The notes: generated from the sequence alone by a model not told the origin. 64,000 bases of DNA from an uncultured Acidobacteriota bacterium (GCA_963764715.1 CAVXTP010000018.1:1-64000), one strand, 5' to 3'. Counted from the stretch's first letter, positions 4,923-40,887 are shown. A program made the numbers and translations.

Positions 4923-5488
4923 GGCGCCGACCTCCTCACGTTCGGGGCGTCTGGGTCGAGTCTGACCTCGAGGCCTCTGGAGAACTCTGATTCATTTGCA
5001 TCAAACGAGACTCCCGAACCCCTATCGTTGTCAAGGCGTGTCGGGACGTCGGGAGCGATTTCGATGGCGATGGGCTGTCGGTCCGTCACGACGACCCGGC
5101 GCCCCAGGATCTCGGCGCAGAAGCGGGACAGGTCGACGTTCGAGAACTCGTCCCAGCCGCGACAGACGCCGGGGCGGACGACCTGCGTGTCGCAGGCCAG
5201 GGTCAGGCCCTGCCGGACCTGCTCGGAGAGCTGCCAGAGGTCGGCGAACCGCTCCATCTGTGCGCGGCTCAGGTGCGTGCTCACTCCGATGAGCGGCTTC
5301 CAGAGGTCGTGGAACTCCCGTTCGCCCCATTGGCGGAAGCCGCGGCAGAAGATTCCGCGCTCCGCGGCGGCCTGGCACATCGAGCGCCCGTCGCCGCAGA
5401 GCCGCACGAGGGATTCTCTGAGTTGACCGATCGCTTCCGCGCGCGTCCACACGTCCTGCGGGACGGGAGCGGAAGGCGAAGGGTTCAT
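4919..5488 (-). CDS. Uncharacterised Cys-rich protein (paralog A)
   Basis: Aligns by eye with the adjacent ORF (TRxxAI..LC..C.AA..G..CRGF ... CD.....C.GW..F.N). Stop overlaps the mtrC ATG. Start uncertain (5488 or 5497). Confidence 0.7.
   Translation of the reverse strand: MNPSPSAPVPQDVWTRAEAIGQLRESLVRLCGDGRSMCQAAAERGIFCRGFRQWGEREFHDLWKPLIGVSTHLSRAQMERFADLWQLSEQVRQGLTLACDTQVVRPGVCRGWDEFSNVDLSRFCAEILGRRVVVTDRQPIAIEIAPDVPTRLDNDRGSGVSFDANESEFSRGLEVRLDPDAPNVRRSAP
4988..5003. promoter_or_regulatory. TGATGC-N4-GCATCA box upstream of the mtrC-like gene
   Basis: TGATTCATTTGCATCA; candidate -10 CAGACT on the minus strand at 4964-4959. Confidence 0.75.
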
Positions 5489-5524
5489 GGCGCGCATCTG
5501 ATCCTCGATCCGGCGAAGAGCGCA

Positions 5525-5540
5525 TGATGCATCCACATCA
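5525..5540. promoter_or_regulatory. TGATGC-N4-GCATCA box upstream of Cys-rich paralog A
   Basis: TGATGCATCCACATCA. Confidence 0.7.
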
Positions 5541-5552
5541 CGGCGAAAAGTT

Positions 5553-5957
5553 TCAGCCGATGATGGCTTCACGGCCGGTCAGCTCCTTGTACGTTTCCGC
5601 CAGGCGGGCGTTGTCGAACTGATTCCAGCCGTCGCAGCCGCAGTGATCGCGGGTCTCGGCGTCGCAGCAGATGGCGAACCCGCCGACTTCCTGGCGCCCG
5701 ATGTGGTAGAGGCTGATGAGCCTCTCGAGCTCCTCGCGCGAGGCGTCGGGACGGTGGCGCGCGATCCAGTCGAAGCGCTTCCGGAGCTGATCGTCCGTGA
5801 GGGCCGCGAACCCGCGGCACATCACGCCCAGGTGCGCCGCCGCGGAGCACGCGCAGTGCTCTTCGTCGCAGAGCTTCGCGAGCCGCTCCCGGATCGCCGC
5901 GATCGCCTGCGGGCGGGTGAGGTGAAGGGGCCGCATCGGGGTCGTGGGTTCGTCCAC
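5553..5957 (-). CDS. Uncharacterised Cys-rich protein (paralog B)
   Basis: LCDEEHCACSAAAHLGVMCRGF...ICCDAETRDHCGCDGWNQFDN; homologous to paralog A. Start GTG 5957, or ATG 5936 or 6017. Confidence 0.7.
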   Translation of the reverse strand: MDEPTTPMRPLHLTRPQAIAAIRERLAKLCDEEHCACSAAAHLGVMCRGFAALTDDQLRKRFDWIARHRPDASREELERLISLYHIGRQEVGGFAICCDAETRDHCGCDGWNQFDNARLAETYKELTGREAIIG

Positions 5958-5991
5958 GACGACAGGATCGCCCGGGGAATTTGCGGGTGCC

Positions 5992-6007
5992 TGATGCGAA
6001 TGGATCA
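5992..6007. promoter_or_regulatory. TGATGC-N4-GCATCA box upstream of Cys-rich paralog B
   Basis: TGATGCGAATGGATCA, identical to the copy at 19489. Confidence 0.75.
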
Positions 6008-6025
6008 AGTCCCTCATGGGCCGCC

Positions 6026-6259
6026 TCAGTCGGGCTTGCGGGCTTCGGCCGCGCCGCCCTGGGCCGCGCGCAGGGTCTCGCCGGCGCGGAAGCGGTAGTG
6101 GCCGCCGGGCGTCCGGATGGTCGCGAGCAGGCCGGCGCGCGCCCACCGCGTGACCGTCGAGGTCGAAACTCCGAAAAGTCGCGCCACGTCGCGTCGGGAC
6201 AGAAAGTCGGGCTCCGCCGGAAAAGTCGGGCTCGCTTCGCGATTCAGCAGTTCGGGCAT
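6026..6259 (-). CDS. BldC/excisionase-like small MerR-type HTH DNA-binding protein
   Basis: LSRRDVARLFGVSTSTVTRWARAGLLATIRTPGGHYRFR; AAGGAG RBS before ATG 6259. Confidence 0.85.
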   Translation of the reverse strand: MPELLNREASPTFPAEPDFLSRRDVARLFGVSTSTVTRWARAGLLATIRTPGGHYRFRAGETLRAAQGGAAEARKPD

Positions 6260-6325: not shown

Positions 6326-6341
6326 TGATGCAAACGAATCA
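6326..6341. promoter_or_regulatory. TGATGC-N4-GCATCA box upstream of the BldC-like gene
   Basis: TGATGCAAACGAATCA; candidate -10 CAGAGT on the minus strand at 6302-6297. Confidence 0.75.
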
Positions 6342-6456: not shown

Positions 6457-7392
6457 TCAGGCGGTCGGCGCGAGCGGCTGGGGCCAGTTCGGGACGAGCC
6501 CCTCGTGGCGCACCGTCTGCAGCACGCGGTCGGGAGTGCCCCAGTCGCTCCACGACACGTCGGGCAGCGACGAGACGGCGAGGAGCGCGGGAAAGGCCTG
6601 GAGAATTCGTTCGGAGAAGTTGGCGGTCGGCGCCGCCGCGTACGCCCGCTCGATCGCCCGCGCCTCGGCGCTCGTGCCCGAGAAGGGGCGGATGGCTTCG
6701 AGCGCGGCGTGGAGCGAGGGAATCGCGCGCCGTCCGGCGTCGAGCAGCGCCGCGGCGCGCGCGACGACGACGAACGTGTTCCAGAGGCAGCCGCGCTCCA
6801 TGCAGGCCCGGGCCGTTCCGTCGTCGGGCTTCTCCCAGAACCGGCGCACCAGGCGCAGCCCGGGCTCGAGCTCGCTGCCCGGCTCGATCCAGCCGTAGCC
6901 GGTCTCCGGGGCGTCCGGCCGGGCGCCGACGACCGCGAGGTGCGCGGGGTGGCGCTCGACCTGGCGGGCGACGTCCGCGACGTGAGAAATGAACGCGGCG
7001 TCGTCGCCCACGAAATGGTCCGACGGAAAGACGGCGACCACGGCCTTCGGGTCGCGCCAGGCGATCCAGTGGACGGGGAGCAGGACGCCGGCGGCCGTGC
7101 CCCGGTCGCTCGGCTGCACCAGAACCTTCGGCGCGTCCCGGCGGGCGAACTCGCGGGCGAGAAACGCCGCGTGGGATCTGGTGGCGATGACGACGGTCCG
7201 CTCGGGAGGCACCGCGAGCGCCACGCGATCGAGCGTCTGGCGCAGGAGGGAGCGGGACCCGGTGAGCACCGCGTACTGCTTGGGCCGGCCGTCGGCGTGG
7301 ACGCGCTCGACGAGGGACGCCAGGCGCCTTCCCTCCCCGCCGGCGAGGACGACCGCCCAGAGTCGAGGACCCGATTCATCCGGACGCGGCAT
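6457..7392 (-). CDS. Mannose-1-phosphate guanylyltransferase-like nucleotidyltransferase
   Basis: LAGGEGRRL, PKQY, FPSDH, TGYGWI, FWEKP and WSDWG motifs. Confidence 0.85.
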   Translation of the reverse strand: MPRPDESGPRLWAVVLAGGEGRRLASLVERVHADGRPKQYAVLTGSRSLLRQTLDRVALAVPPERTVVIATRSHAAFLAREFARRDAPKVLVQPSDRGTAAGVLLPVHWIAWRDPKAVVAVFPSDHFVGDDAAFISHVADVARQVERHPAHLAVVGARPDAPETGYGWIEPGSELEPGLRLVRRFWEKPDDGTARACMERGCLWNTFVVVARAAALLDAGRRAIPSLHAALEAIRPFSGTSAEARAIERAYAAAPTANFSERILQAFPALLAVSSLPDVSWSDWGTPDRVLQTVRHEGLVPNWPQPLAPTA

Positions 7393-7481: not shown

Positions 7482-7946
7482 TCACGCCGGCGCGGCGCGG
7501 ACGGTCAGGACCGGGCGCGCCGCGCGGGAGACCACCCGGGCCGCGACACTTCCCAGGAGAATGCGCGAGGGACCGCGGCGGCCGTGGGTTCCCATGACGA
7601 TGAGGCCCGCCTGTTCCTTTTCGGCGGCATCCAGGATCTCCTCGTCCGGGAGTCCCTCCCGCAGGGTCCCGTGGGCGTCGATGCCCCCGGCGCGGGCATG
7701 GTCGACGGCGGCCTCGAGCCGCTTCTCGGCGTTGGACCGGACGGCCCGGGCGAAATCCTCGTAGACGCCGGGCGGGTAAGCGCCGATCGGCGCCTCCGGG
7801 ACCGCGGCGAGCGCGGGGACCTGGTACGCGTGGACGATCGTCAAACGCCCGCCGCATTCGCGCGCGATGCGCTCGGCTTCCTTGAGGGCCGGCTCCGACG
7901 CCGGCGAGAAGTCGGTGGCCGCGAGGATGCGATCGAAGGTCTTCAT
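7482..7946 (-). CDS. Universal stress protein
   Basis: ILAATDFS...IVMGTHGRRG...LGSVA. Confidence 0.92.
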   Translation of the reverse strand: MKTFDRILAATDFSPASEPALKEAERIARECGGRLTIVHAYQVPALAAVPEAPIGAYPPGVYEDFARAVRSNAEKRLEAAVDHARAGGIDAHGTLREGLPDEEILDAAEKEQAGLIVMGTHGRRGPSRILLGSVAARVVSRAARPVLTVRAAPA

Positions 7947-7990
7947 GGTGACCTCCACCGCGATCATCTGGTTCCGGGAGGCGCGCCGAA

Positions 7991-8006
7991 TGATGCATTC
8001 TCATCA
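7991..8006. promoter_or_regulatory. TGATGC-N4-GCATCA box between the divergent USP and HPF genes
   Basis: TGATGCATTCTCATCA. Confidence 0.75.
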
Positions 8007-8041: not shown

Positions 8042-8410
8042 ATGACGACGATGCCGCTGCAGATCCATCTCGGAGAAGTCGGAGACGCGCCGGGCGTGGA
8101 GAAGGCCATCGCGGAGGGCGCGGCGCGGCTGGAGCGCTATTCGGACGAGATCCAGCGTTGCCAGGTCTGGGTCGAGGCGCCGCACGGCCACCACCAGCAG
8201 GGACGGCTCTACGAGGTCCGGATCCGCCTGACGGTTCCGGAGGAAGAGCTCGTGGTGCACAACCAGCCGGCCGACGACGACGTGCACGCGCTGCTGCATC
8301 GGGCCTTCGACGCGGCGCGGCGCCAGCTCCAGGACTACATGCGGCGTCGCCGGCGGGACGTCGCGCGGCATGGTGCCGCGCGCCGCAAGCCCGGACAGGG
8401 AGGAATGTGA
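8042..8410 (+). CDS. HPF/RaiA-family ribosome hibernation protein
   Basis: LERYSDEIQRCQVWVEAPHGHHQQG..YEVRIRLTVP..AFDAARRQLQDY. Confidence 0.8.
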   Translation: MTTMPLQIHLGEVGDAPGVEKAIAEGAARLERYSDEIQRCQVWVEAPHGHHQQGRLYEVRIRLTVPEEELVVHNQPADDDVHALLHRAFDAARRQLQDYMRRRRRDVARHGAARRKPGQGGM

Positions 8411-8871
8411 TGCAGACCAAGTCGATTTCACGCACGCCGGCGCCCACCCGTCCGGTGCGCCCCGCGGAGGTCCGCGACCTCATGACGGAGCACGTCTTCA
8501 CGCTGCAGCCCTCCGACGACCTCGAGGCGCTCTACGACCTGATGGACGCGCACCACGTGCGGCACGTTCCGATCGTCGATCGGGACGGCGATCTCGTCGG
8601 CCTCGTGACGCAGCGCGACCTCGCGCGCAGCGCCCTCGGCACCCAGGACGTCCTCCCGCTCTCGGCGCAGCAGGAGATGCTCCGCCGGCGCCACGTGCGG
8701 GAGATCATGGCAACCGAGGTCGAGACGGTCGAGCCGGACGAGTCGCTGAAGGCCGCGGCCTCCATGCTTCTCGAGAACAAGATCGGCTGCCTGCCGGTCG
8801 TCGAAGGGGAACACCTCGTCGGGATCCTGACGGAGTCGGATTTCGTCCGTTACTACACGGAGAGGAGCTGA
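8410..8871 (+). CDS. CBS-domain pair protein
   Basis: VRHVPIVD..LVGLVTQRD; IGCLPVV..LVGILTESD. Confidence 0.9.
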   Translation: MQTKSISRTPAPTRPVRPAEVRDLMTEHVFTLQPSDDLEALYDLMDAHHVRHVPIVDRDGDLVGLVTQRDLARSALGTQDVLPLSAQQEMLRRRHVREIMATEVETVEPDESLKAAASMLLENKIGCLPVVEGEHLVGILTESDFVRYYTERS

Positions 8872-8873
8872 AG

Positions 8874-9392
8874 ATGAGCGCTCGGGTGAGAATGCTGTTT
8901 CCGCTGGCGGCGGCCGTCGTGGCCGCGGCGGCTTTCGCGTCGGTCGGGGCCGACTCGATCCAGAACTTCCATCGAATCAACGACCGCGTCGCCGTCGGCG
9001 GCCAGCCGACGCCGGAGCAGATCAAGGCGCTGGGCGAGGAAGGCTTCAACGCGATCATCAACTTGCGCGAGGAGTCCGAGTTCAACGACGGGGCTCAGTT
9101 TCACGAGGCCCGCGACGCGGGAGTCCTGTTCGTCCGGGTCCCGTTCTCGATGGAGAACCCCACCGACGCGCAGGTCGCGAAGTTTCTGGAGGTCACCGAC
9201 GACCAGTCGCTCTATCCGGTCTACATTTACTGCGCCGAGGGCAACCGCGCGGCGGGCCTCTGGATGATCCGCCGGGTGGTGCGCGACCACTGGACGTTCG
9301 AGAAGGCCGAGGCCGAGGCGAAGGCCGCGGGCCTGACGAAGCCCGGGACGATCGAGTTCGCCCGCGGCTACATCGCGCGTCACAAGTCCTAG
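8874..9392 (+). CDS. Secreted PTP-fold phosphatase/sulfurtransferase-like protein (DUF442-like)
   Basis: Signal peptide; GGQPT, IINLR and YCAEGNRA (CX5R) motifs. Confidence 0.75.
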   Translation: MSARVRMLFPLAAAVVAAAAFASVGADSIQNFHRINDRVAVGGQPTPEQIKALGEEGFNAIINLREESEFNDGAQFHEARDAGVLFVRVPFSMENPTDAQVAKFLEVTDDQSLYPVYIYCAEGNRAAGLWMIRRVVRDHWTFEKAEAEAKAAGLTKPGTIEFARGYIARHKS

Positions 9393-9407
9393 CGGAGGAG
9401 GCGTCTC

Positions 9408-9854
9408 GTGAAACCCATTCGCAACATCCTGGTCGCGACCGATTTCTCGCCGGCGTCCCGCCCGGCCTTCCGCCGCGCCGTCGAGATGGCCTCCGAGAAC
9501 GGCGCCGCGCTCTGGATCGCGCATGTCGCGTCGCCGCCCGCCCCGATGTCCCCGGAGGGATTCGTCCTGCCGCGCTTCTACGAGGACATGAACGTCGCCA
9601 TCCGGACCGACGCCCAGAAGCGCCTGCGGAGCCTGCTCGCGCGGGCGCGCAAGGCCGGCGTTCGGGCCCGGTCCATCATCCTGAATGGCGTCCCGCACGA
9701 CGCGCTGAACCGCGCCGCGCGGAGGCATCGCGCGGATCTCCTCGTCATGGGGACCCACGGGCGGACGGGGGTCGCGAAGCTCTTCGTCGGCAGCGTGGCC
9801 TCGCGGGTCGTCGCGACGTCGCGTTGCCCCGTGCTCACGATCCGGGGCCACTAG
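9408..9854 (+). CDS. Universal stress protein
   Basis: ILVATDFS...VMGTHGRTG..GSVA. Confidence 0.92.
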   Translation: MKPIRNILVATDFSPASRPAFRRAVEMASENGAALWIAHVASPPAPMSPEGFVLPRFYEDMNVAIRTDAQKRLRSLLARARKAGVRARSIILNGVPHDALNRAARRHRADLLVMGTHGRTGVAKLFVGSVASRVVATSRCPVLTIRGH

Positions 9855-9873
9855 GCGCGCCGGGAAGGCGGTC

Positions 9874-11070
9874 GTGGAAAGCGCCGTCGCCGCGCCCGCC
9901 CGCATCGCCGGCGGGGTGTCCGGCCGGGTGGTGCGCCGGGCGATCTGGCTCGTCGCAGCCGCCGCGCTCGTGGTCGGGCTGCGGCTGACCCTTTTCCGCC
10001 CCGCGCGCGTCCCGGTGACGGTGTTTCGCGCGGCGTCCGGACGCGTCGAGGAGAGCGTCACCAACAGCAAGGCGGGAACCGTGAAATCCCGGCGCCGCGC
10101 CGAGCTCTCGCCCGAGATCGGGGGCCGCGTCCTGGAGCTCCCGGCCGCCAAGGGCGCCCGCGTCCGCCGCGGAGACGTCCTCATGCGGATCGCCGAGGGG
10201 GATTACCGGGCGCAGGTCGACGTCCAGCAGAGCGCGCTCGAAGCGGCGATGTCGGCCCGCGTCGAGGCATGCCGGACGGCGGAACAGCTCGACCGCGAGC
10301 TCGCCCGCAACCAGGCGCTCTCGCGCGAGAAGCTCGTCTCCGTCGAGTCGCTCGACCAGCTGCAGAGCCGGCGCGATGCGGCGGCGGCGGCGTGCGAGAC
10401 GGCCCGGGCGAAGATCGGCCAGGCGCGGGCCGGCCTCGTCGCGGCGCAGGTCAACCTCGAGAAGACGGTGCTCCGGGCGCCGTTCGACGGCGTCGTCGCG
10501 GAGGTGAAGACGGAAGTCGGCGAGTGGATCACGCCGTCGCCGCCCGCTCTTCCGATCCCGCCGGTCCTCGTGCTGTTCGACCCGGGCGCGACCTACGTGA
10601 GCGCGCCGATGGACGAGGTCGACGTCGGAAAGGTCCGGGCCGGCCAGGCGGTCCGCGTCACGTTCGACGCGTTCCCCGGCCGATCGTTCCCGGGCCGGGT
10701 CACCCGCGTGGCGCCCTACGTCCAGGACGTGCAGGAACAGAACCGCGTGTTCGAGATCGAGGCCGAGCTCGAGGACGAGGCTTTCGCGCGCACGCTGCCG
10801 CCGGGGACCTCGGCGGACGTCGAGGTCGTTCTCGCGGCGCGCGACGGCGTGCTCCGGATCCCGAGCTCGGCGATCCTCGAGGGAGACCGCGTCCTCGTCG
10901 CGCGCGACGGCCGGCTCGAGTCCCGCCCGGTGACCGTGGGCCTGAGGAACTGGCAGTTCGCCGAGGTCCGGAAGGGCCTCGGTCCGGGGGACGCGGTCGT
11001 GGTCTCGCTCGACCGCGCGGAGGTCCGGGAGGGTGTCCGCGCGGAGATCACCGCGGAAACGGCGCGGTGA
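9874..11070 (+). CDS. MacA-like periplasmic adaptor (membrane fusion protein)
   Basis: N-terminal TM, coiled coil, LRAPFDGVV, GTSADVEV. Confidence 0.88.
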   Translation: MESAVAAPARIAGGVSGRVVRRAIWLVAAAALVVGLRLTLFRPARVPVTVFRAASGRVEESVTNSKAGTVKSRRRAELSPEIGGRVLELPAAKGARVRRGDVLMRIAEGDYRAQVDVQQSALEAAMSARVEACRTAEQLDRELARNQALSREKLVSVESLDQLQSRRDAAAAACETARAKIGQARAGLVAAQVNLEKTVLRAPFDGVVAEVKTEVGEWITPSPPALPIPPVLVLFDPGATYVSAPMDEVDVGKVRAGQAVRVTFDAFPGRSFPGRVTRVAPYVQDVQEQNRVFEIEAELEDEAFARTLPPGTSADVEVVLAARDGVLRIPSSAILEGDRVLVARDGRLESRPVTVGLRNWQFAEVRKGLGPGDAVVVSLDRAEVREGVRAEITAETAR

Positions 11071-11789
11071 TCGAGCTTTCCGGGGTCGGCCGGGAGTTCC
11101 GGGTCGGGGGCCGGCCCGTCCACGCCCTCAAGTCGATCGACCTGACGATCCCCGACGGGGACTACTGCTCGATCATGGGCCCGTCGGGCTCGGGCAAGTC
11201 CACGCTGCTGAACATCCTGGGCTGCCTCGACCGGCCGACGGCCGGATCCTACCGGCTCGACGGACGGGAGGTCGCGCGGCTCGACGACGACGAGCTCTCG
11301 CACGTTCGACGCCACCGGATCGGCTTCGTCTTCCAGTTCTACCACCTCGTTCCCCGCCTGACCGCCGCGGGCAACGTCGAGTTGCCGATGATCTTCGCCG
11401 GCGTCGAGCGCCGCGAGCGCGCGGCGCGGGTCGCGCGGTCCCTCGAGGAGGTCGGTCTCTCCGAACGCGCCGACCACCTCTCCGAGCAGCTCTCGGGCGG
11501 CGAACGGCAGAGGGTGGCGATCGCCCGGGCCGTCGTGATGGGGCCGTCGCTGCTGCTCGCCGACGAGCCGACCGGAAACCTCGACACGGCGGCCGGCGCG
11601 GAGATCGTGAGGCTCCTCGAGGGGATGAACTCTCGCGGCCTGACCCTGGTGGTCGTGACGCACGACCCGGCGATCGGGCGCCGGGCGCGGCACCGCCTGC
11701 GCCTGGTGGACGGGTCGATCGAGCGCGAGGAGCGGGACGCCTCGGGAGCAGGAGCGGTTTCGGCGGCGGTGGCGGGGGCGGCCTCGTGA
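11067..11789 (+). CDS. ABC transporter ATP-binding protein (MacB/LolD family)
   Basis: GPSGSGKST, LSGGERQR, DEPTGNLD; GTGA overlap with the previous gene. Confidence 0.93.
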   Translation: MIELSGVGREFRVGGRPVHALKSIDLTIPDGDYCSIMGPSGSGKSTLLNILGCLDRPTAGSYRLDGREVARLDDDELSHVRRHRIGFVFQFYHLVPRLTAAGNVELPMIFAGVERRERAARVARSLEEVGLSERADHLSEQLSGGERQRVAIARAVVMGPSLLLADEPTGNLDTAAGAEIVRLLEGMNSRGLTLVVVTHDPAIGRRARHRLRLVDGSIEREERDASGAGAVSAAVAGAAS

Positions 11790-12991
11790 ACGCCCGCGAT
11801 CTCGTCGCCTTCTCGGTCCGGGCCCTCCGCGGCCACCGGCTGCGCACCGGGCTGTCGCTCGCGGGCGTCGCGATCGGAGTCGCCTCGGTCGTCCTCCTGA
11901 CGAGCCTCGGCGAGGGGGCGCGGCTCTACGTGACCGGCGAGTTCGCCAACCTCGGCACCAACCTCCTCATCGTCCTCCCGGGCAAGACCGAGACGACGGG
12001 TGTGACGCCGTTCGTGACGGGCGCGCCGCACGACCTCACGCTCGAGGACGCCGACGCCATCGGCAAGCGCGTGCGCTCGATCCGGCGCTTCGCCCCGCTC
12101 ACGCGCGGCGCGGCCCCGGCCGGTCGGGGCGAGCGCCGCCGCGACGTGACGGTGACGGGGACCTCCGCCGAATTCCTCGCGGTGCGCAACCTCGCGATCC
12201 AGACCGGCCGCTTCCTGCCGGCGGGCGAGGCGGCCCGCGAGCAGCGCGTGTGCGTCGTCGGGTCGACCGTGCGCCGGGAGCTCTTCGGCGCCGAGAATCC
12301 GCTGGGCGAGTGGCTGCGCCTGGGCGACGAGCGCTTCCGGATCATCGGCGTCCTCGCGCCGCGGGGCATGTCGATCGGCATGGACATGGACGACATGGTG
12401 TTCGTGCCGATCGGAAGAGCCATGAAGATGTTCAACCAGTCCGGCCTCTTCCGGCTGCTGCTCGAGGTCCGGTCGCACGACGAGATCCCGGCCGCCGAGG
12501 AGGCCGTGCGGCGGGTCCTGATGGAGCGCCACGACGGCGAGGACGACGTGACGATGCTGACACAGGACTCGGTCCTCGCGACCTTCGGCCGCATTCTGGC
12601 CCTGCTGACGGCCGCGCTCGTCGGCATCGCCGCGATCTCGCTGACGGTGGCGGGCATCGGAATCATGAACGTGATGCTCGTCTCGGTCTCGGAGCGCCGG
12701 CGCGAGATCGGGCTGCTGAAGGCGGTCGGCGTGACCGCCCGGCAGGTCGTCGCCGTCTTCCTGGTCGAGGCCGCGCTGCTCTCGACCTCGGGCGGGGTTC
12801 TCGGGCTCGCCGTGGCGTTCGCGGGAACCGGGCTGCTCCGCGGCCTGTACCCGGCCTTTCCGGCGCAGCCGCCGCCGTGGGCGGTCGGCGCCGCCCTGTT
12901 CGTCTCGATCTCGGTGGGCCTCGCCTTCGGGGCGGCGCCGGCGCGCCGCGCCTCCCGCCTCGACCCGATCGTGGCCCTGGCAAGGCGATGA
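11786..12991 (+). CDS. MacB-like ABC permease
   Basis: GIGIMNVMLVSVSERRREIGLLKAVG; RASRLDPI. Confidence 0.9.
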   Translation: MNARDLVAFSVRALRGHRLRTGLSLAGVAIGVASVVLLTSLGEGARLYVTGEFANLGTNLLIVLPGKTETTGVTPFVTGAPHDLTLEDADAIGKRVRSIRRFAPLTRGAAPAGRGERRRDVTVTGTSAEFLAVRNLAIQTGRFLPAGEAAREQRVCVVGSTVRRELFGAENPLGEWLRLGDERFRIIGVLAPRGMSIGMDMDDMVFVPIGRAMKMFNQSGLFRLLLEVRSHDEIPAAEEAVRRVLMERHDGEDDVTMLTQDSVLATFGRILALLTAALVGIAAISLTVAGIGIMNVMLVSVSERRREIGLLKAVGVTARQVVAVFLVEAALLSTSGGVLGLAVAFAGTGLLRGLYPAFPAQPPPWAVGAALFVSISVGLAFGAAPARRASRLDPIVALARR

Positions 12992-19488: not shown

Positions 19489-19504
19489 TGATGCGAATGG
19501 ATCA
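19489..19504. promoter_or_regulatory. TGATGC-N4-GCATCA box between the divergent Pat and PfkB genes
   Basis: TGATGCGAATGGATCA; candidate -10 TAGAGT at 19527-19532. Confidence 0.8.
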
Positions 19505-21068: not shown

Positions 21069-21084
21069 TGATGCGATCGCATCA
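21069..21084. promoter_or_regulatory. Perfect TGATGC-N4-GCATCA palindrome upstream of a USP gene
   Basis: TGATGCGATCGCATCA. Confidence 0.82.
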
Positions 21085-21609: not shown

Positions 21610-22266
21610 GTGCCACACTCATCTGAAGCCCTCGACCGGATCTCGCGCAGCGGGGAGGCCGTTTTCGCGATCGATTCGTCCGACCGGGTCATCCTCTGGA
21701 ACAAGAAGTGCGAGGAGCTTCTCGGCAAGCCCGCGCGCGCCGTGCTCGGGAAGCGCTGTTACGACGTCATGGGCGGCCGCGACGAGAACGGCAACGTCTA
21801 CTGCTACCGGAACTGCCCCGTCGCCTTCCAGGCCCGCGAGCGGCAGAAGGACCCGGTCCACCGGTTCCAGCTGACCGTCGACTCGGTCAACGGAGCCCGC
21901 AAGTCGGTCGACGTCTCGCTCTTCGCCATTCCGTCCTACCACCCGGCGCTCTCGACCCTCGTCCACGTTCTGCGGGAGGGAAAGAAGAAACCGACGGCGC
22001 TCGAGAAGGTGCTGGCGCAGGAGGCCGAGGTCCGCGAGCCGCTCTGGCCCATGGAGACGAAGACGGGCCAGCCGATCGATCTGACCTCGCGCGAGAAGGA
22101 GATCCTGCGCTGCCTCGCCGAGGGGCTTCCCACGAGCGCGATCGGCAAGAAGCTCTTCATCTCGCCGGTCACGGTCCGCAACCACATCCAGAACATCCTG
22201 CACAAGCTCGACGTCCACACCAAGCTCGCCGCGGTCGTCTTCGCCTACCAGCACAACCTGATCTGA
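21610..22266 (+). CDS. PAS-LuxR HTH one-component regulator (copy 1)
   Basis: PAS domain with C..CYDV..GRDENGNVYCYRNCP; LTSREKEIL..TVRNHIQNILHKL. Extended -10 TGCTAGGCT at 21576-21584. Confidence 0.9.
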   Translation: MPHSSEALDRISRSGEAVFAIDSSDRVILWNKKCEELLGKPARAVLGKRCYDVMGGRDENGNVYCYRNCPVAFQARERQKDPVHRFQLTVDSVNGARKSVDVSLFAIPSYHPALSTLVHVLREGKKKPTALEKVLAQEAEVREPLWPMETKTGQPIDLTSREKEILRCLAEGLPTSAIGKKLFISPVTVRNHIQNILHKLDVHTKLAAVVFAYQHNLI

Positions 22267-22363: not shown

Positions 22364-22415
22364 CCGTCTGCCCTCCCGCCGTCCCTCCTCCCGTCTGGTG
22401 CCGATGCATCAGAAA

Positions 22416-22431
22416 TGATGCAAACGCATCA
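22416..22431. promoter_or_regulatory. TGATGC-N4-GCATCA box upstream of PAS-LuxR copy 2
   Basis: TGATGCAAACGCATCA, with an extra GATGCATCA half-site just upstream; candidate -10 CACGAT at 22455-22460. Confidence 0.82.
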
Positions 22432-22484: not shown

Positions 22485-23135
22485 ATGGAAGCCTTCGACG
22501 AAACGCTCGATCGCATCGCACGCAGCGGAGAGGCGGTGTTCGCGGTCGATGGAGCCAATCGCATCATCCTCTGGAACAAGGCCTGCGAGAACCTCGTCGG
22601 CCGGCCCGCGCGCCACGCGCTCGGCAAGCGCTGCTTTGAGGTGGTCGGCGGCCGCGACTCCAACGGCAACGTCTACTGTCATGCGAGCTGTCCCGTCGCG
22701 CACCAGGCCCGCGATCTCCGGAACGACCCGGTCCGGCGGTTCGAGCTCGACGTCGCCTCCGGCGACGGTGGCCGGCGCCGCCTGTCCACGTCCATGTTCG
22801 CGGTCCCGTCCTATCACCCGGCGCTGACGACGCTCGTGCACGTGCTGCGCCCCGCCGAGGGTCCCTCGGCCGCTCCGGCGCCTTCGGCCGGCGAACGGGA
22901 GCCGCTCGCGCCTCTGACCGCGCAGGGGGACGCGGTTGCCCTGACGCACCGCGAAAAGGAGATCCTGGGCTGCCTCGCGAGCGGCCAGACGACCGTGGCG
23001 ATCGCGAAGGCGCTCTCGATCGCGCGCGTCACGGTGCGCAATCACGTGCAGAGCATCCTCCAGAAGCTCAACGTTCACTCGAAGCTCGAGGCCGTCGTGG
23101 CCGCGCGTCGGGGCGGGCTGCTCCCGACCTGTTGA
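22485..23135 (+). CDS. PAS-LuxR HTH one-component regulator (copy 2)
   Basis: Paralog of 21610 with the same Cys pattern (C..CFEV..GRDSNGNVYCHASCP); LTHREKEIL..TVRNHVQSILQKL; AAGGAGG RBS. Confidence 0.9.
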   Translation: MEAFDETLDRIARSGEAVFAVDGANRIILWNKACENLVGRPARHALGKRCFEVVGGRDSNGNVYCHASCPVAHQARDLRNDPVRRFELDVASGDGGRRRLSTSMFAVPSYHPALTTLVHVLRPAEGPSAAPAPSAGEREPLAPLTAQGDAVALTHREKEILGCLASGQTTVAIAKALSIARVTVRNHVQSILQKLNVHSKLEAVVAARRGGLLPTC

Positions 23136-23148
23136 TGCGCCTGCATCT
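23133..23148. promoter_or_regulatory. TGATGC-N4-GCATCA box upstream of a small Cys-rich ORF
   Basis: TGATGCGCCTGCATCT, overlapping the stop codon of PAS-LuxR copy 2. Confidence 0.7.
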
Positions 23149-30337: not shown

Positions 30338-30393
30338 AGATGCCGCTGCATCAACCGCGCGGGCGGCGGCGGCCGGATGATGCTCCTGCATCT
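30338..30393. promoter_or_regulatory. Two TGATGC-N4-GCATCA boxes between the divergent BON and DLH genes
   Basis: AGATGCCGCTGCATCA (30338-30353) and TGATGCTCCTGCATCT (30378-30393), one per direction. Confidence 0.78.
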
Positions 30394-31189: not shown

Positions 31190-31190
31190 G

Positions 31191-33603: not shown

Positions 33604-33619
33604 TGATGAGATCGCATCA
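33604..33619. promoter_or_regulatory. TGATGC-N4-GCATCA box upstream of the ferredoxin gene
   Basis: TGATGAGATCGCATCA; extended -10 TGtCAGGCT at 33639-33647. Confidence 0.8.
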
Positions 33620-35167: not shown

Positions 35168-37359
35168 TGTCCCTCGCTGGGCTCCGCCCGGGAGAGAACC
35201 GGCATGAGCCGGGCCGCCAGGCCGAAGAGAAAGATCGTCGCGGCGATCAAGCCGATCGAAACGCCCCACTCGAAGATCGACGGCACGTAGGCCCGGGGCG
35301 CGACCCAGGGCATCCGGCCGTGGAAGGTCATCGCGAAGAGGACGACGTTCATGCGGTTGTACACGACGCCGAGGACCGCGAGCAGGGCCGCGACGAAGAG
35401 CGCGTCGGGGCGCTCGCGGAGCGACCGGCGGGCCAGCATGAGGAGCGGGAGAACGCCGCCGAGGAGGATCTCGGCCGCGAAGGCCGGGCCCAGCCGCCCG
35501 GAGAAGGCGCTCGCGAGCTGGTTTCGAATTGCCATGTCCCCGAGGCGAAACACGAGGTAGACGAGGAGCGCCCAGAACGCGATCTGTCCGACCGCGGCGA
35601 GCCGCGTCATCTCGAGCGGGCGGCGCCACCCCTTCGCAATCCCCATGTCGATGAGGATCACGAGCGCGGTTCCGGCCACGATCGACGACAGGAAGAAGGA
35701 GACGGGCATCACGGGGGACCACCACTGCGGGGCGAGCAGGTTCGGCATCAGCAGGTACAGGGAGCCGAGCGAGCTCTGGTGCATCGTCGACAGCGTGACG
35801 GCGGCGATCGCGAGCATGATCGGCTCGGCCCGGTCGTCCCGCGCGCGAAAGAACCAGGCGAGGGCGCCGAAGATCACCGCCGTCGCAAGGGTGTAGAGGA
35901 GGTTGCGCGAAAGCATGTAGACGAACAGCGTCACCGCCGCCGCCACGTAGGCGCCGTTCCACCGCCGCCAGGCCGCCGCCGCCCGCTGGAATCCCCAGCG
36001 CTCGAAGGGAACGGGGAGGAACTCGAGCAGGAGGATCGTAACGTAGAGGCCGACGCACCACGAGACCTCGAACATGGCCGAGTGCTCCGGAGCCTGCAGG
36101 CCGAGCTGGTAGAAGTGCCAGGGCAGGCCGAGGTCGGCGACGAGCGTGACCGTCACGAAGGAATAGCTCAGGAGGCCCATCAGGACGGCCGTGCGGCCCA
36201 GCCCGTAAAGGTCCTTTCGCTGGAGGACGTAGATCACGCCGGCCATCGCGAACGCGCCCGCGGCCACCGCGATCCACACCAGGTCGAAGAGGATCCACAG
36301 GCCCCACGGGTAGGTGTCGGAGAGGTGCGTGCTGCCGCCGAGCCCGAGGGCGAAGCGCGCCACCATCGAGACGCCGCAGAACGCCATGAGCAGGAGGAGG
36401 ACCCAGTTGAAGGGGGTCATCAGCTCGTTCCGGAGAGGCTCGAATTCGACGTGGCCGTGGTCTCCGGAATGCTTCGACGCAGCCGATCCGTCCGCCGCCG
36501 CCTGAACCCGCTTCCGGAAGAAGGCGTACGCGGCGCCGAGCAGGGCGCCGACGGCCATCACGGCGGGGGGAACGGCGCCGAGCGCCGCCCTGGTGAAGGC
36601 CGGAAAGGGCTTCTCCCCGAACGTCGGGAAGCCGAGCTTCTCGAACGGCACGGTCGACAGGTACACGACGCTCGTCCCGCCCAGCTCCTTCTCTCCGTAG
36701 ACGTGATCGACGTATTTGTCGGGCCGGTCGGAGATCCGCTTGTGCGCGAGCGCCAGCATCTCGTCGCGGGTTCCGTAGCGCAGGGCGTCGGCGGGGCACG
36801 CCTTGACGCAGGCGGGAGTCGCGATGGTATCGAGGAAGCGCTTCGTCTCGTCGGGAGGGGCCGGCTGACCGTTGAACGCGATCGGCGCCGGCTGCGGGGC
36901 CCGGTCCGCGCAGTGCGTGCACTTCTCGATCTTCGGAGCGAGCCTGTCCCACTCCGCGGTCGGCACGTCCCAGGGACACGCCAGCATGCAGTAGCGGCAG
37001 CCGATGCACTTGTCCGCGTCGTAGGAAACGGGCCCGTCGGGTTGCCGGTAGAGCGCCGTCGTCGGACAGGCGGAGACGCAGCCCGGCTCCAGGCAGTGGA
37101 AGCACCGCCGCATCACGAAGGCGGAATCCAGGCCTCCCGGCTTCTGCGGGTTCTCCATCTCGTGAAACGAGATCAGGGTGTACGTTTTCGCGCTGAGCGT
37201 CGCCGGGTTCTGGAAGCCCAGTTGGGCCTGCAGCTCCGTCTCCTCGCCCTCGCGCTCGTTCCACTGCTTGCAGGCCACCTGGCACGCCCGGCAGCCGATG
37301 CAGTTGGCGATGTCGATCAGCGTCGTCCGGATCGGGCCGGCGGCCGCGGCGTGCGTCAC
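35164..37359 (-). CDS. Fused formate dehydrogenase Fe-S beta subunit and NrfD/HybB-type membrane anchor
   Basis: CIGCRACQVACKQWN, CFHCLEPGCVSACP, CIGCRYCMLACP, then YPWGLWI, DLGLPWHF, SAMFEV, STMHQSSLG; GTGA overlap with fdnG. Confidence 0.85.
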   Translation of the reverse strand: MTHAAAAGPIRTTLIDIANCIGCRACQVACKQWNEREGEETELQAQLGFQNPATLSAKTYTLISFHEMENPQKPGGLDSAFVMRRCFHCLEPGCVSACPTTALYRQPDGPVSYDADKCIGCRYCMLACPWDVPTAEWDRLAPKIEKCTHCADRAPQPAPIAFNGQPAPPDETKRFLDTIATPACVKACPADALRYGTRDEMLALAHKRISDRPDKYVDHVYGEKELGGTSVVYLSTVPFEKLGFPTFGEKPFPAFTRAALGAVPPAVMAVGALLGAAYAFFRKRVQAAADGSAASKHSGDHGHVEFEPLRNELMTPFNWVLLLLMAFCGVSMVARFALGLGGSTHLSDTYPWGLWILFDLVWIAVAAGAFAMAGVIYVLQRKDLYGLGRTAVLMGLLSYSFVTVTLVADLGLPWHFYQLGLQAPEHSAMFEVSWCVGLYVTILLLEFLPVPFERWGFQRAAAAWRRWNGAYVAAAVTLFVYMLSRNLLYTLATAVIFGALAWFFRARDDRAEPIMLAIAAVTLSTMHQSSLGSLYLLMPNLLAPQWWSPVMPVSFFLSSIVAGTALVILIDMGIAKGWRRPLEMTRLAAVGQIAFWALLVYLVFRLGDMAIRNQLASAFSGRLGPAFAAEILLGGVLPLLMLARRSLRERPDALFVAALLAVLGVVYNRMNVVLFAMTFHGRMPWVAPRAYVPSIFEWGVSIGLIAATIFLFGLAARLMPVLSRAEPSEGH

Positions 37360-40300
37360 GTGCGCCTCCCCGGGGGCCGGGATCTTTTCGCCGCCGGGCG
37401 CTCGGCCTTGACCACGTTGACGAGGCACGCCTTGGTCTCCTGGGTCCCCGCGCCGGGATCCGTGGCGTCGATCGTGAGGTGGTTGACGCTGGGACCGGTC
37501 GACAAACCCTGGAAGCCGAAGTTGTACGGCATCCAGACGATCGTGACTTCGCGGTCGCCGATCTTCAGCGCCTTCATGCGCGGCGTGACGAGGGCCTTGA
37601 CCTCGAGCTCACCGCGCGCCGACGAGACCCGGACCCAGTCCCCCGATTTCACGCCGAGCTTCTGGGCGAGGGCGAGCGGCATCTCCACCACCGGTTCGGG
37701 GACGAGCTCGTTCAGCCAGGGGATGTTCCGCGTCGTCGAGCCGCCGCACCAGTGTTCGGCGACCGTCGACGTCATCAGCACATAGGGGTACTTGTCGGCG
37801 GTGCCGATCGGCTGATGCGTTGCGACGCGCGGGTACTTCAGCATCGGGTTGCTCTTCACGCCCGGATGCAGGACGTTTTCCACCGGGCTCTCGACGGGCT
37901 CGTACATCTCCGGCAGCGGGCCGTCCTTCGGCACGTAGGCCACGTCGCGCGGATACCCCGGATGCTTCTCGTCCGGGTCCGAGTAGACGGCCGCGAAGAG
38001 TCGCCCGACGCCCTCCGCGCCCAGGTGGAAGGGGCGCTTGCCATTCGGCGTGTCCGGCCCGTCGGTCAGGACGGGGACGTCCGGAACGTCGTATCCCGTC
38101 CAGCGCTTCGCCTGCTCGTCCCACCAGACGATAGGTTTCGAGCCCGGATAGGGCTTGCCGTTCCGGTCGCAGGAGGCCCGGTTGTAGAGGATGCGCATGT
38201 TGTTGGGCCATGTCCACCCGAAGCCCGGGTAGAGGCCGAGGCCTCCCGGATCCGTTCGCGAGTCGCGGCGCTTCGAAAGATTCTCGCCGTTGGCGAAGAC
38301 CCCCGCGTAGATCCAGGCGCCGGACGACGTCGAACCGTCCGCCCGAAGATCGCCGACCTTGCGGACGAGATCGCCCGCCTTCAGTCCGGTCTCCGGGTTG
38401 TCGCGCAGGGCGTACCCGTTGATCTCGCGTAGCACGTCCTCGGCCGTGGTGTAGGTCCAGAAGGCCTTCTTGATGCTCTCGTCCCTCGGCTCCGTCGAAT
38501 CCTTGACCAGATCGCGCACCTTGCGGAAGACGCGGTCCACGATCTCGCCGTCGGGCCGGGCCTGCCCGGGCGGCTTCACCGCGGCGTGGCGCCACTGCAC
38601 CATCCCGCCCGAGTTGCTGATGGTGCCGTTCTTTTCCATGAAGAACGCGGCGGGCAGCAGGATCACTTCGGTCGCGATGGTCTTCGGGTCGACGCCGGGC
38701 CGCCGCCAGAACGCGGCGGTCTCGGTCTCCCAGATCTCCTGGACCACGAGGGTCTCGAGCTTCGCCATCGCGTCGAACGTCAGCGTGAGGTTGGGCACGG
38801 TGACCGCGGGGTTCTGGCCGACGATCCAGAGGACCTTCAGCTTCCCGGCGAGGGCATCCTCGAACATCGGCATCGTCCCGTAGTCCTTGGAGGCGTTCCG
38901 TTTGGGCAGCCAGCCATAGGCATAGTCGTTCTCGGCGGTCGCCGCCTCTCCGTAGAACGCCTTGAGCGTGTTGACGAGGTACCGGCTGTCGGCGATCCCG
39001 TTCTTGCGCACGTAGTCGTAGATCGTCGGCTCGGCGCTCGACGGCGAGTTGAGGTAGCCCGGCATGTAGTTGTAGAGCACCGCCATGTCGCAGGCGCCCT
39101 GCACGTTCGGCTCGCCGCGCAGCGCGTTGACGCCGCCGCCCGGCTTTCCGATGTTGCCGAGCAGGAGCTGCAGGATCGTGAACGAGCGGATTCCCTGCAC
39201 GCCGGTCGTGTGCTGGGTCATCCCGAGGGCGTAGAGAATGGATCCCGGCCGGTTCTTCGCCATCATCTCCGCGATATGCCGGATCTGGTCGGCCGGAATG
39301 CCGGTGATCTGCTCGCCCGTCTCGAGCGTGTACCGCGAAACGAAGGTCTTCAGGCGCGAGAAGACGCAGTGCGGGTCATCCAGGCTCCTGGCGACACGCG
39401 GCTTGCCCTTCGCGTCGAGCTGGTATCCCCAGCTCCGGGTGTCGTACTTGTGGTGCTCCGCGTCGTACCCGCTGAAGACGCCATCCTTGAAGTCGAAGGC
39501 CTCGTCGCCGAGGTAGAGGGCGTTCGTGTGGTTCACGACGTAATCCTCGTCGTACAGCTCGTGGACGAGGATGTGGTTGATCATGGTGTTCTGGAAGGCG
39601 GCGTCCGTGCCGGGCCGAATGCGCGCGTACACGTCCGCCCCCGCGGAGGTCCGGGTGAATCGCGGATCGACGTGAATGATCTTCGCCCCGTTCTCCTGTG
39701 CCTTGCGGATCCACTTGTAGGCCATGGGGTGGTTTTCGGCGACGTTGCTGCCTTCCACCAGGATCGTCTTGCAGTTCTGCAGGTCGAGCCAGTGGTTGGT
39801 CATCGCCCCCCGCCCGAACGAGGCCCCCAGACCGGGGACCGTGGGGCTGTGTCAAAGTCGGGCCTGGTGCTCGACGTAAGCCAGGCCGAGCAGCCGGGCC
39901 GCCTTCTGGAAGAGGTAGCACTCCTCGTTCGTGTTCTGAGCGCCGCCCAGAAAGCCGATCGCGTCCGTCCGATTGACGGGAACCTCTTTGTCGCCGACCT
40001 TCTCGGTGGCGATCCAGGTCGCGTCGCGCGTCTTCCGGATCTTCTGCGCGACCCGCTCGACCGCGTCGTCCCAGGTGATGTCCTCCCAGTGGTCGCTGCC
40101 CGGCGCCCGGTAGCGGGGCGTCTTGAGCCGGCTCGGGGAAGTGTGCGTCGCGAACATGGAAATGCCTTTGACGCACAGCGATCCGCGGTTCACGATGTGG
40201 TCGTAGTCGCCCTCCATCGTCAAGAGCTTGCCGTCGCGGACCGCGGCGATCATGCCGCAGCCGCACGAGCAGAAGTTGCAGGACGTCGTGAACTCGCTCA

Positions 40301-40496
40301 CGTCCGAAAGCTTCAGCTCTCGCACGGCGGCTCTCATCGCGGGCACGTCGATGAACCCGTCGAGCGCGAGCCCCGCGCCACCGCAGACGGTCAACCGCAA
40401 CAAGTCGCGGCGGTTGACCGAAGTCGACGCTCGCGGCCGACTCTCGTCTGCCCGAAGAGAGAGGTCCGGGATCGGAGTCTCCGGAGGTTTATCCAC
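37356..40496 (-). CDS. fdnG: Selenocysteine-containing formate dehydrogenase alpha subunit (Tat-exported)
   Basis: Two track ORFs join in frame through UGA at 39854-39852: EHQARL-U-HSPTVPGLGASFGRGAMTNHW. NRRDLL Tat motif, CNFCSCGC, ALRGEPNVQG. Confidence 0.93.
39821..39854 (-). promoter_or_regulatory. Sec UGA codon plus bacterial SECIS hairpin
   Basis: UGA CAC AGC CCC AC GGUCCCC-GGUCU-GGGGGCC: stem-loop with a GGUCU loop just 3' of the UGA. Confidence 0.85.
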
Positions 40497-40537
40497 GAGG
40501 TTGCCTCCGTGCGATTGCCTGCGCTCCGGCCAGCATC

Positions 40538-40556
40538 GATTGCGACATTCGCAATC
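40538..40556. promoter_or_regulatory. Perfect inverted repeat upstream of fdnG
   Basis: GATTGCGA-CAT-TCGCAATC, with extra half-sites nearby. Confidence 0.5.
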
Positions 40557-40871
40557 CCTCCCTCGCTACGCGCAATCCAGAAGGCGGCTCCGGATCGGAG
40601 CCGACGGCAACGAAACCAGTTTACCGTACGGCCATTGTCGGGTGGCAGGTTCCGTGAATGCTGCGGCCGGGCGCCGGACCCTGAGAGCGAGGTGGGCAGT
40701 TCTCTCCGGACCGGGCGACGAAGGAGATCCCGATGGAGGAGGCCCGCACGCCTCCCGCACCCGCTGACCCGCTAAGCGATCGTCCGGTGTTGGAATCCTG
40801 GCGCTCCGAAAGCCGCAGCGCCGTGATGCCTTTGGCGCCGCACCGGAGGGCCTTGCGCAACGACCTCGACT

Positions 40872-40887
40872 TGATTCAATCGCATCA
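40872..40887. promoter_or_regulatory. TGATGC-N4-GCATCA box inside island B
   Basis: TGATTCAATCGCATCA; candidate -10 TAGGGT at 40910-40915. Confidence 0.78.

Follow-up and report, generated by a model that had tools for sequence, protein, structure and literature searches.

A stretch of 64 kb from the genome of an uncultured bacterium of the Thermoanaerobaculia (Acidobacteriota), here called the window (contig C18:1-64000 of a 4.36-Mb assembly with 70% G+C), carries many copies of a 16-bp palindrome, TGATGC-N4-GCATCA (TGATGCNNNNGCATCA, hereafter the box), and raises the question of what this element does and which protein reads it. The original prediction took it for the signature of a new hypoxia or redox regulon that links an Mtr electron conduit to a set of dormancy genes similar to that of DosR. 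The explanation that we favour, and to which we would assign a probability of roughly 65% on the basis of sequence comparison, is that the box is an activator site centred near -43, that it is bound by the PAS-LuxR regulators encoded in the same cluster, and that it governs a stress and anaerobic regulon.

The box is far too frequent in the window to be there by chance. At one mismatch or less 14 copies were found against 0.09 expected, exact matches to TGATGCNNNNGCATCA number 2 against 0.01 expected, and the maximum in 100 dinucleotide shuffles of the window was 1 box at the same tolerance. All of the 13 copies listed in the original prediction match at 0 or 1 mismatch, and the fourteenth, at 22396, which was absent from that list, lies 20 bp upstream of the copy at 22416. 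The half-degenerate copy reported at 28848 indeed retains its right half GCATCA alone, and the reported absence of boxes after 49 kb is borne out, as the last one ends at 40887; beyond that position the window has no box at one mismatch or less, and the sole later match, at 58024, has 2 mismatches. The statement that each box lies just upstream of a start codon is true for most of them and fails for two, namely the one at 23133, which shares bases with the stop codon of a regulator gene and has the next called start, that of a gene for a universal stress protein (USP), about 290 nt away, and the one at 4988, which is placed within the weakly supported open reading frame (ORF) 4919-5407, 73 nt upstream of mtrC.

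In the whole genome there are 40 boxes at one mismatch or less, 10 of them perfect, and 34 of the 40 are intergenic in a genome whose non-coding share is about 12%. The motif is therefore not equally frequent in coding or random DNA. Genes were called with a purpose-made caller using codon log-odds trained on long ORFs with high G+C at third codon positions, which gave 3636 genes and 87.7% coding sequence; start codons are approximate because the coordinates come from this codon-usage caller. The copies associated with promoters have the consensus TGATGC-R-W-W-Y-GCATCA, where the central four bases are also palindromic and AT-rich despite the GC-rich genome. The box is a genuine, strongly intergenic promoter element.

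This element is shared by many relatives. A survey of 301 genomes of the class found perfect boxes in 30 of the 43 genomes of the family to which the window belongs and, for a sister family, in 23 of the 27 genomes surveyed; in the remaining families perfect boxes were rare, with 0-2 per genome for a control with the reversed pattern. A box with central ACGC/GCGT occurs as one exact sequence, in a single copy, in many genomes of several families that lack the regulator; its recurrence may reflect a location in a conserved gene and not in a promoter. The motif was described as an unrecognised one, and no matching motif or regulator was found among those described: the literature, supplements being outside the scope of the search, yielded no published description of this box or of its PAS-LuxR family.

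The position of the box within the promoter is what points to its function. In the genome as a whole an nAnnnT hexamer, resembling a -10 element, is placed 22 or 23 nt past the box in 33 of the 52 gene-facing orientations (those with a gene start within 300 nt of the box) and in none of the 28 that do not face a gene, the intergenic background of nAnnnT being 0.027 per position. The hexamers named in the original prediction (TAGAGT, TAGGGT, CAGGCT, CACGAT, CATCGT, CAGACT and CAGAGT) all lie at one of these two distances from the end of the box. At least one gene-facing hexamer with the proper spacing accompanies 31 of the 40 boxes; of the sites with two mismatches 12 of 78 have one, and all 12 are intergenic. 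On these counts some 30-45 promoters of the genome are probably under the control of the box. When the hexamer is placed at -12 to -7, the dyad falls at -42.5 or -43.5, which would be its distance from the transcription start site. This fixed distance to the hexamer, which would put the dyad near -42.5/-43.5, is an activator geometry; the original prediction had named it class II. Moreover, when the listed flanks were inspected by eye, no TTGACA-like -35 hexamer was seen in the interval from the box to the -10. The -10 hexamers are themselves weak, as they vary at every position except A2 and T6, which are fixed by construction; a missing -35 together with a weak -10 are hallmarks of an activator-dependent promoter. 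Upstream of one of the regulator genes two boxes stand in tandem (22396-22411 and 22416-22431), 20 bp apart from centre to centre, at positions that would correspond to about -63 and -43. In about 8 of the 33 promoters the called start codon is only 6-9 nt past the hexamer, which suggests leaderless mRNAs.

The same geometry bears on the idea that the box is a repressor operator, by which a PAS-LuxR protein or another protein would keep the promoters off until a signal arrives. Palindromic operators are common for repressors, and in genus g14 of a sister family (loci L111-L114) the box ends 10 nt before TAGAAT and so covers part of the -35 region of the promoter that drives the regulator, a repressor-like position that suggests autorepression of the regulator in this genus rather than autoactivation. 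In the present genome, however, the box of the 33 promoters ends 22-23 nt before the -10 and thus upstream of the core promoter, the promoters bear the hallmarks of activator dependence just mentioned, and the predicted tandem phasing at -43 and -63 matches that of the activator DevR. A general role as repressor operator is improbable.

If the box is an activator site, the best candidates for its binding are two proteins encoded in the window, P0001 and P0002, in which a PAS domain is followed by a LuxR-type helix-turn-helix (HTH). They are 61% identical and both of their genes are preceded by a box. Of the 11 orthologous loci, 10, from as many other species, have a box no more than about 90 bp away from the start of the PAS-LuxR gene, and L011 has none there. 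These boxes are paired in 7 loci (L001-L003, L005 and L008-L010), and the hexamer follows the proximal box in 9 of the 10, L009 having a box without hexamer. The 11 loci contain 50 boxes in about 190 kb, compared with 1 box in 68 loci of unrelated LuxR proteins that came from the same search.

The regulator and the boxes also occur together at the level of genomes. In a sample of 61 genomes of the family, 45 gave a match to the PAS sensor domain, and in these the median number of boxes at one mismatch or less is 22 versus 5 for the control (counts of the reversed pattern in the same genomes), while the 16 genomes without the sensor have 4.5 versus 5.5. When the comparison is limited to genomes with a completeness of 90% or more, each of the 10 that lack the regulator has 1-9 boxes, and 23 of the 28 that possess it have 14 or more. 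For box count against regulator presence the Mann-Whitney test gives p = 1.5e-6, a value that serves only as a description because related genomes are not independent. The tallies contain genomes flagged as unpublished (G004, G305 and G326 in the family table, as well as G104 and G179); removal of the first three leaves 43 genomes that have the regulator and 15 that lack it in the family table, and the same contrast is seen. Distant homologues of two other families, with 43-50% identity, have a box just upstream in 5 of 20 loci (L110-L114). In addition, the HTH stretch TVRNH...VH is invariant in an alignment of 24 sequences with identities down to 35%, which fits one shared DNA specificity across the family.

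Several observations weigh against this assignment. The remaining 15 of the 20 loci of distant homologues have no box upstream of the gene. The phyletic test is confounded: the genes for MtrC (36 of 61 genomes) and for a CRP-type regulator (38 of 61) are distributed almost like the boxes, a whole lifestyle module coming and going together. Three genomes are enriched in boxes without a detectable full-length PAS-LuxR protein (G301, 24 versus 3 in the control; G302, 19 versus 7; G307, 11 versus 3); they have HTH-only matches to the family profile, and their assemblies are 85-86% complete. Conversely, 12 genomes that bear the regulator are not enriched by the criterion applied, with counts of 5-14 versus controls of 2-13; examples are G184 (6 versus 5), G321 (6 versus 7) and G180 (14 versus 13), while G305 (9 versus 2) fails only the minimum count. 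The repressor-like box of genus g14 belongs here as well, and so does the assignment of a cofactor to the sensor, which is pure inference.

The co-varying CRP-type gene deserves particular attention, since its product, a regulator of the CRP/FNR family (G000:C22:533376-534062), could itself be the binder and activate from a classical class II position. Such a placement is typical for the CRP/FNR family. Orthologues are present in 32 of the 36 box-enriched genomes of the family, so that their coverage is about as good as that of PAS-LuxR with fewer cases in which the gene is present but the boxes are not enriched; moreover in many relatives the gene is on the same contig, 3-35 kb from the PAS-LuxR genes, and orthologues with 52-55% identity exist in family f2, which contains boxes. 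The gene was nevertheless not found in G024, a genome 98% complete in 2 contigs that has 16 boxes versus 4 in the controls, 8 of which, the tandem pair included, fall within the 12 kb that surround its PAS-LuxR genes, nor in G124 (22 boxes versus 8), and G248 has 4 perfect boxes with only a relative of 30% identity. In the opposite sense G007 has an orthologue of 66% identity and boxes at background (11 versus 10). Upstream of the gene itself there is no box within 400 nt in G000, even with 3 mismatches, and none was seen ahead of its operon. The recognition helix keeps the E..R pair that in known CRP/FNR members reads TGA-N6-TCA, whereas the TGA and TCA triplets of the box are N10 apart, and the distance from the dyad to the -10 is 1-2 bp longer than for the canonical -41.5. 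We consider this regulator an unlikely binder. Its gene is the last one in an operon (G000:C22:529449-534062), after two genes for large membrane proteins.

The genome encodes another CRP-type protein (C22:700420), which was rejected as binder because G072 and G168 have orthologues of 67% identity with boxes at background. Neither of the two CRP/FNR-type proteins has an N-terminal Cys cluster. Scans for the sites of known members of this family gave no alternative element: of the FNR-type matches TTGAT-N4-ATCAA 7 of 34 are intergenic, no perfect one is, and they are not enriched upstream of genes, while of the CRP-type matches TGTGA-N6-TCACA 8 of 14 are intergenic, with no link to the co-varying CRP-type gene. 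The half-site spacing of the box, TGATGC-N4-GCATCA, differs from that of FNR boxes, as had been contended, and from that of CRP boxes.

The three genomes enriched in boxes without a full-length PAS-LuxR protein may also be taken to mean that another regulator binds, be it a stand-alone LuxR HTH, the MerR-like protein of 77 aa encoded in the window, or a protein from outside the island, and that the PAS-LuxR genes are mere targets. The HTH-only profile matches in those genomes favour such a view, and in the present genome a small LuxR HTH gene outside the window and the MerR-like gene are both preceded by a box. The incompleteness of the three assemblies speaks against it. MerR-type regulators act between -35 and -10 and not at -43. 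As to the stand-alone HTH gene (G000:C6:340692-341011), its product aligns to residues 121-213 of P0001 with 50% identity, and if it binds the box, then it does so as a member of the PAS-LuxR family; the gene encodes a truncated paralogue or else a competitor or partner without a sensor. A binder foreign to the family is not what we would expect.

A box with TAGTCT at +22 is found upstream of an operon for a histidine kinase of the HisKA_3 type and a NarL-type response regulator (G000:C10:171081-172954), a pair that shares the architecture of DosR and could be thought to bind the box as DosRS-like proteins. Orthologues of this regulator (E-values up to 1e-55) are present in only 8 of the 61 family genomes, and this distribution led us to reject it as the binder; it was not found in the box-rich G132 (47 boxes), G064 (39) and G311 (36), and its recognition helix, TVEFHKYQI, differs from that of PAS-LuxR. 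It is extremely improbable that this pair reads the box.

We therefore return to the PAS-LuxR proteins as the presumed readers of the box and to what they might sense. The GerE HTH (PF00196) scores 63.0 bits in P0001 and 62.7 bits in P0002 against a cut-off of 23.5, and the HTH profile of the family matches the solved HTH domains of NarL, DesR, VraR, GerE and DosR. The PAS assignment comes from a Pfam match in P0002 and from PAS families precomputed on homologues, and a Pfam search found no Response_reg domain in either protein. The AlphaFold model has a five-stranded PAS core and a four-helix HTH, with a mean pLDDT of 88.6 and low values only in the interdomain linker. Its best Foldseek matches are VqmA and EL222 (6ugl, E-value 5e-9; 8a5r, E-value 3e-8), which together with a PAS-LuxR protein of unknown function from Bacteroides are the nearest solved proteins, at 15-19% identity, and the PAS domain of FG214 (10jx_B) matches as well. 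The family comprises at least 752 database proteins, none of which bears more than a generic name, and a look-up of the sensor domain in a protein atlas returned generic PAS clusters only.

In the alignment of 24 sequences the residues D22, W30, N31, G47, C50, G56, D58, N62, C65, C69 and H119 are invariant, and a fourth cysteine, C33, is restricted to the closer relatives. In the model C50 begins the helix 50-54, C65 and C69 are located just ahead of the helix 70-77, and H119 lies in the strand 116-123. In PAS domains such helices and the last strand line the cofactor pocket. Cys50, Cys65, Cys69 and His119 may hold a metal, an iron-sulfur centre, haem or another redox-active cofactor. The protein lacks the signature of a light-oxygen-voltage (LOV) photoreceptor, whose photoactive cysteine stands in a motif of the NCRFLQ type: the sequence around Cys50 reads GKRCFEVVGGRD, and the identity to EL222 is 16-18%.

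The genome encodes a third full-length paralogue (G000:C22:442377-443009, minus strand), 55% identical to P0001, which has no box within 400 nt upstream even at 3 mismatches. This third protein could be the primary sensor, made constitutively, that switches on the two copies driven by boxes.

The genes that follow the boxes give some indication of the programme to which they belong. The targets in the window, whose families were assigned by Pfam and NCBIfam searches, are collected in Table 1; the row at 8042-14196 encodes HPF, CBS, a dual-specificity-phosphatase-like protein, USP, HlyD, ABC and two MacB-like permeases, and the erythromycin-esterase-like gene of the window is preceded by a half box. 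Elsewhere in the genome boxes precede genes for USP, a second HPF, the small and large subunits of a NiFe hydrogenase, a 2-oxoacid:ferredoxin oxidoreductase (OFOR), FeoB, a Rieske/cytochrome b/multihaem cluster, cytochrome c peroxidase, CcmE-CcmF, a hemerythrin/DUF2249 protein and an operon ending in HSP20, in addition to the kinase-regulator pair and the HTH gene already mentioned. In orthologous loci of other genomes, genes for USP, GNAT-ACS, DUF5335, BON, HSP20, PFOR, PRT and hemerythrin are likewise preceded by boxes. The target set reads as a low-oxygen, low-energy programme, and low oxygen or redox state is the presumed inducing signal. Among sequencing runs a search for this DNA listed soil DNA metagenomes only, with shares of 0.21 or less, and no RNA run.

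The link with the Mtr cytochromes, which was part of the original prediction, stands up in relatives. A box at one mismatch or less is present within 350 nt upstream in 18 of the 26 loci with a full-length mtrC orthologue, and in 10 of the 26 it has the -10 spacing; this tally leaves out L153, which comes from an unpublished genome, as well as L165, L169 and L171, which are incomplete or lie at the edge of a contig. The coupling of the box to outer-membrane cytochromes is thus conserved across several genera. G124, which has no MtrC match, carries a perfect box ahead of an ORF for a 10-haem protein. The order of the three genes in the window (a decahaem protein of the MtrC family, a decahaem protein similar to MtrA/DmsE and a large secreted protein) is the one found in MtrCAB of Shewanella, but the third protein matches no MtrB family and the control by this box is new. 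CRP is the regulator of mtr in Shewanella. Because ORF 3-1790 runs off the end of the contig, which cuts its sequence, and gave no match in Pfam or NCBIfam, its role as MtrB is only positional.

Table 1. Boxes, putative targets and regulator genes in the window (+22 and +23, nucleotides from the end of the box to the hexamer)
Feature	Position	Strand	Remarks
Secreted protein, 596+ aa	3-1790	-	Signal-peptide-like N-terminus; in the position of the MtrB porin
DmsE/MtrA-like decahaem protein	1799-2797	-	TIGR03508, 185.5 bits, slightly below the cut-off of 192.2; 10 CXXCH motifs
MtrC/OmcA-family decahaem protein	2847-4922	-	TIGR03507, 468.5 bits (cut-off 209.3); 10 CXXCH motifs
Box TGATTCATTTGCATCA	4988..5003		Faces the minus-strand mtrC-mtrA-(mtrB-like) operon; CAGACT 23 nt past the box
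Box	5525..5540		Ahead of ORF 4919-5407 on the minus strand (162 aa without family match, weak coding score)
Box	5992..6007		Ahead of ORF 5553-5957 on the minus strand (134 aa without family match)
Box	6326..6341		Upstream of minus-strand 77-aa MerR/HTH_17-type gene 6026-6259; CAGAGT 23 nt past the box
Box, divergent	7991..8006		Leftward, USP 7482-7967, then NTP-transferase 6457-7392; rightward, row 8042-14196
Box, divergent, rightward side	19489..19504		PfkB 19612-20568 and CBS 20604-21059; TAGAGT (19527) at +22
Box, divergent, leftward side	19489..19504		GNAT-ACS (ADP-forming) 16740-19445 and P-type ATPase 14210-16732 (minus strand); GAGCCT at +22
Perfect box	21069..21084		Upstream of USP 21146-21553 and PAS-LuxR paralogue 1
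PAS-LuxR paralogue 1 (P0002, 218 aa)	21610..22266	+	PAS with Cys/His signature and GerE HTH
Tandem boxes	22396..22431		Upstream of PAS-LuxR paralogue 2; proximal box followed by CACGAT (22455) at +23
PAS-LuxR paralogue 2 (P0001, 216 aa)	22485..23135	+	Candidate binder of the box
Box	23133..23148		Upstream of USP 23434-23874; same arrangement in loci L001, L003 and L010
Box 30338, of a divergent pair 40 bp apart	30338..30393 (pair)		Serves BON 29600-30277 (minus strand), then DUF2238 and erythromycin-esterase-like genes
Box 30378, of the same pair	30338..30393 (pair)		Serves 30470-33342 (hydrolase-like, PRT, DUF5335, DUF1028); CATCGT at 30417
Box	33604..33619		Upstream of ferredoxin 33669-33920; CAGGCT (33642) at +22
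Box	40872..40887		Faces plus-strand ORF 40988-41548 (no family); TAGGGT (40910) at +22

A formate dehydrogenase operon close to the last box was rejected as a target, because the box at 40872 faces away from it and some 485 nt separate the box from its start. The coding sequence for the alpha subunit of formate dehydrogenase-N (37356-40394, minus strand) is interrupted by an in-frame TGA at 39852-39854, which leaves two ORFs, with the context VEHQARL-TGA-HSPTV, and the downstream part matches TIGR01553 with 824.8 bits (cut-off 814.2). We take the site of the TGA to be the selenocysteine position of FdnG-type enzymes, and the two ORFs are most likely a single selenoprotein gene. The region 36000-50000 of the window has a lower G+C (0.64-0.66 versus 0.70-0.75 elsewhere) and contains genes for trehalose-6-phosphate synthase/phosphatase (44074-47093) and for a GH15 trehalase-like protein (47143-48909); no box was found in the stretch of the trehalose genes.

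Taking the above together, we infer the following sequence of events, in which the identity of the binder, the sign of the regulation, the cofactor and the signal are all read from sequence. The palindrome TGATGCRWWYGCATCA would be the activator binding site at about 30-45 promoters of this genome, and it would be bound by a dimer of the one-component PAS-LuxR regulators, devoid of a receiver, for which the cluster has the genes. A cofactor held in the PAS domain by Cys50/Cys65/Cys69/His119 would report the oxygen or redox state, and the active regulator, placed beside the -35 position, would recruit RNA polymerase to promoters with a weak -10 and without a recognisable -35. The regulator would raise its own synthesis through the tandem boxes at about -43 and -63. 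One output would then serve stress and low energy, with USPs, ribosome hibernation factors, CBS, BON and HSP20 proteins, PfkB, a P-type ATPase, the fusion of GNAT with acetyl-CoA synthetase and ferredoxin, and the other anaerobic energy metabolism, with the NiFe hydrogenase, OFOR, FeoB, cytochrome c maturation and the MtrC/MtrA cluster.

The DosR regulon comprises USPs, HPF-like, CBS and PfkB proteins, a CtpF-like ATPase, ferredoxin, HSP20 and PRT/erythromycin-esterase-like proteins, and the likeness to it that was noted at the outset is real, the protein families of the box targets being strikingly similar. According to a paper on DevR of M. tuberculosis, this regulator uses boxes at -42.5 and -63.5, the second one being about 21 bp upstream in helical phase, with the half-site G4G5G6A7C8T9 (PMC3177182). 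Like DosR/DevR of Mycobacterium tuberculosis, the present regulator has a LuxR/NarL-type HTH, palindromes with predicted positions at about -43 and -63 (as counted from the -10-like hexamers) and a predicted autoactivation. Unlike DosR/DevR with its kinases DosS/DosT, however, the PAS-LuxR protein lacks a receiver and a partner kinase and its N-terminal half folds as PAS; the half-site is TGATGC here and GGGACT in the Dev box as given in the same source. Moreover the host is an acidobacterium of the Gram-negative type, and the regulon adds the Mtr cluster, a hydrogenase and OFOR.

With regard to domain order the closest proteins are VqmA of Vibrio, a receptor of 3,5-dimethylpyrazin-2-ol (DPO), and the LOV-HTH protein EL222 of Erythrobacter, which share the N-terminal PAS and the C-terminal LuxR HTH. 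Both act as dimers on inverted repeats. They differ from the present family in their ligands (DPO and flavin mononucleotide, respectively), in the invariant Cys3-His signature, which neither of them has, and in their DNA sites and regulons, which are unrelated; as noted above, the identity is low. The functional analogy with FNR of E. coli is also evident, both being predicted or known global anaerobic switches (hydrogenase, FeoB, cytochrome maturation) with a palindrome beside the -35. FNR has cysteine ligands for a [4Fe-4S] cluster, and cysteine ligands are suspected in the present sensor as well. It is nevertheless built of a barrel like that of cyclic nucleotide-binding proteins and a CRP HTH in place of PAS and LuxR HTH, and its box, TTGAT-N4-ATCAA, differs from the TGA-N10-TCA found here, where the dyad is in addition 1-2 bp further upstream.

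The nearest described system that we found is FG214 of Fimbriimonas ginsengisoli, which is different nonetheless. The report on it describes a haem-binding, redox-switched PAS/HTH one-component regulator in which the PAS cofactor, haem b bound by two histidines, controls dimerisation and the binding of an inverted repeat; it prefers the GC-rich half-site GGGGCGGGG, and no natural regulon is described there (bioRxiv 10.64898/2026.03.15.711900). The present regulator would share with FG214 the principle of a single-protein redox sensor, as proposed here, as well as the inverted repeat and the PAS match to 10jx_B. In FG214, however, the HTH precedes the PAS domain and the ligation is bis-His, the word 'Cys' being absent from the text of that paper. 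By its sequence the regulator falls into the broad class of PAS-LuxR one-component proteins, in which its sensor signature, box and regulon are all new. It belongs neither to DosR/DevR nor to CRP/FNR, since it has neither a receiver nor the CRP fold and the box is neither that of Dev nor that of FNR.

We are tempted to go one step further and to suggest that the PAS-LuxR proteins with the Cys3-His signature form a new class of sensors that respond directly to oxygen or redox state, with an iron-sulfur or other metal centre in the PAS pocket, in which a single box couples a dormancy-like entry to Mtr electron transfer, hydrogen metabolism and ferredoxin-dependent fermentation. This suggestion is tentative, and the odds are somewhat against it. 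If it is true, a PAS-LuxR protein of soil Acidobacteriota does the combined job of FNR and of DosS/DosT-DosR. Among bacterial sensor folds PAS is the most widespread, and the Cys3-His domain could be a variant of it that binds its cofactor in a new way.

Acidobacteriota belong to the most abundant bacteria of soil, and their gene regulation is almost uncharted. What is gained here is a testable cis-element, a regulon of some 30-45 promoters and a candidate sensor-regulator for the switch between growth and persistence at low oxygen, and a gene set like that of DosR would, in a phylum unrelated to the mycobacteria, answer to another kind of sensor. Moreover the box at mtrC would predict when extracellular iron or manganese is reduced, which bears on the redox cycling of soils.

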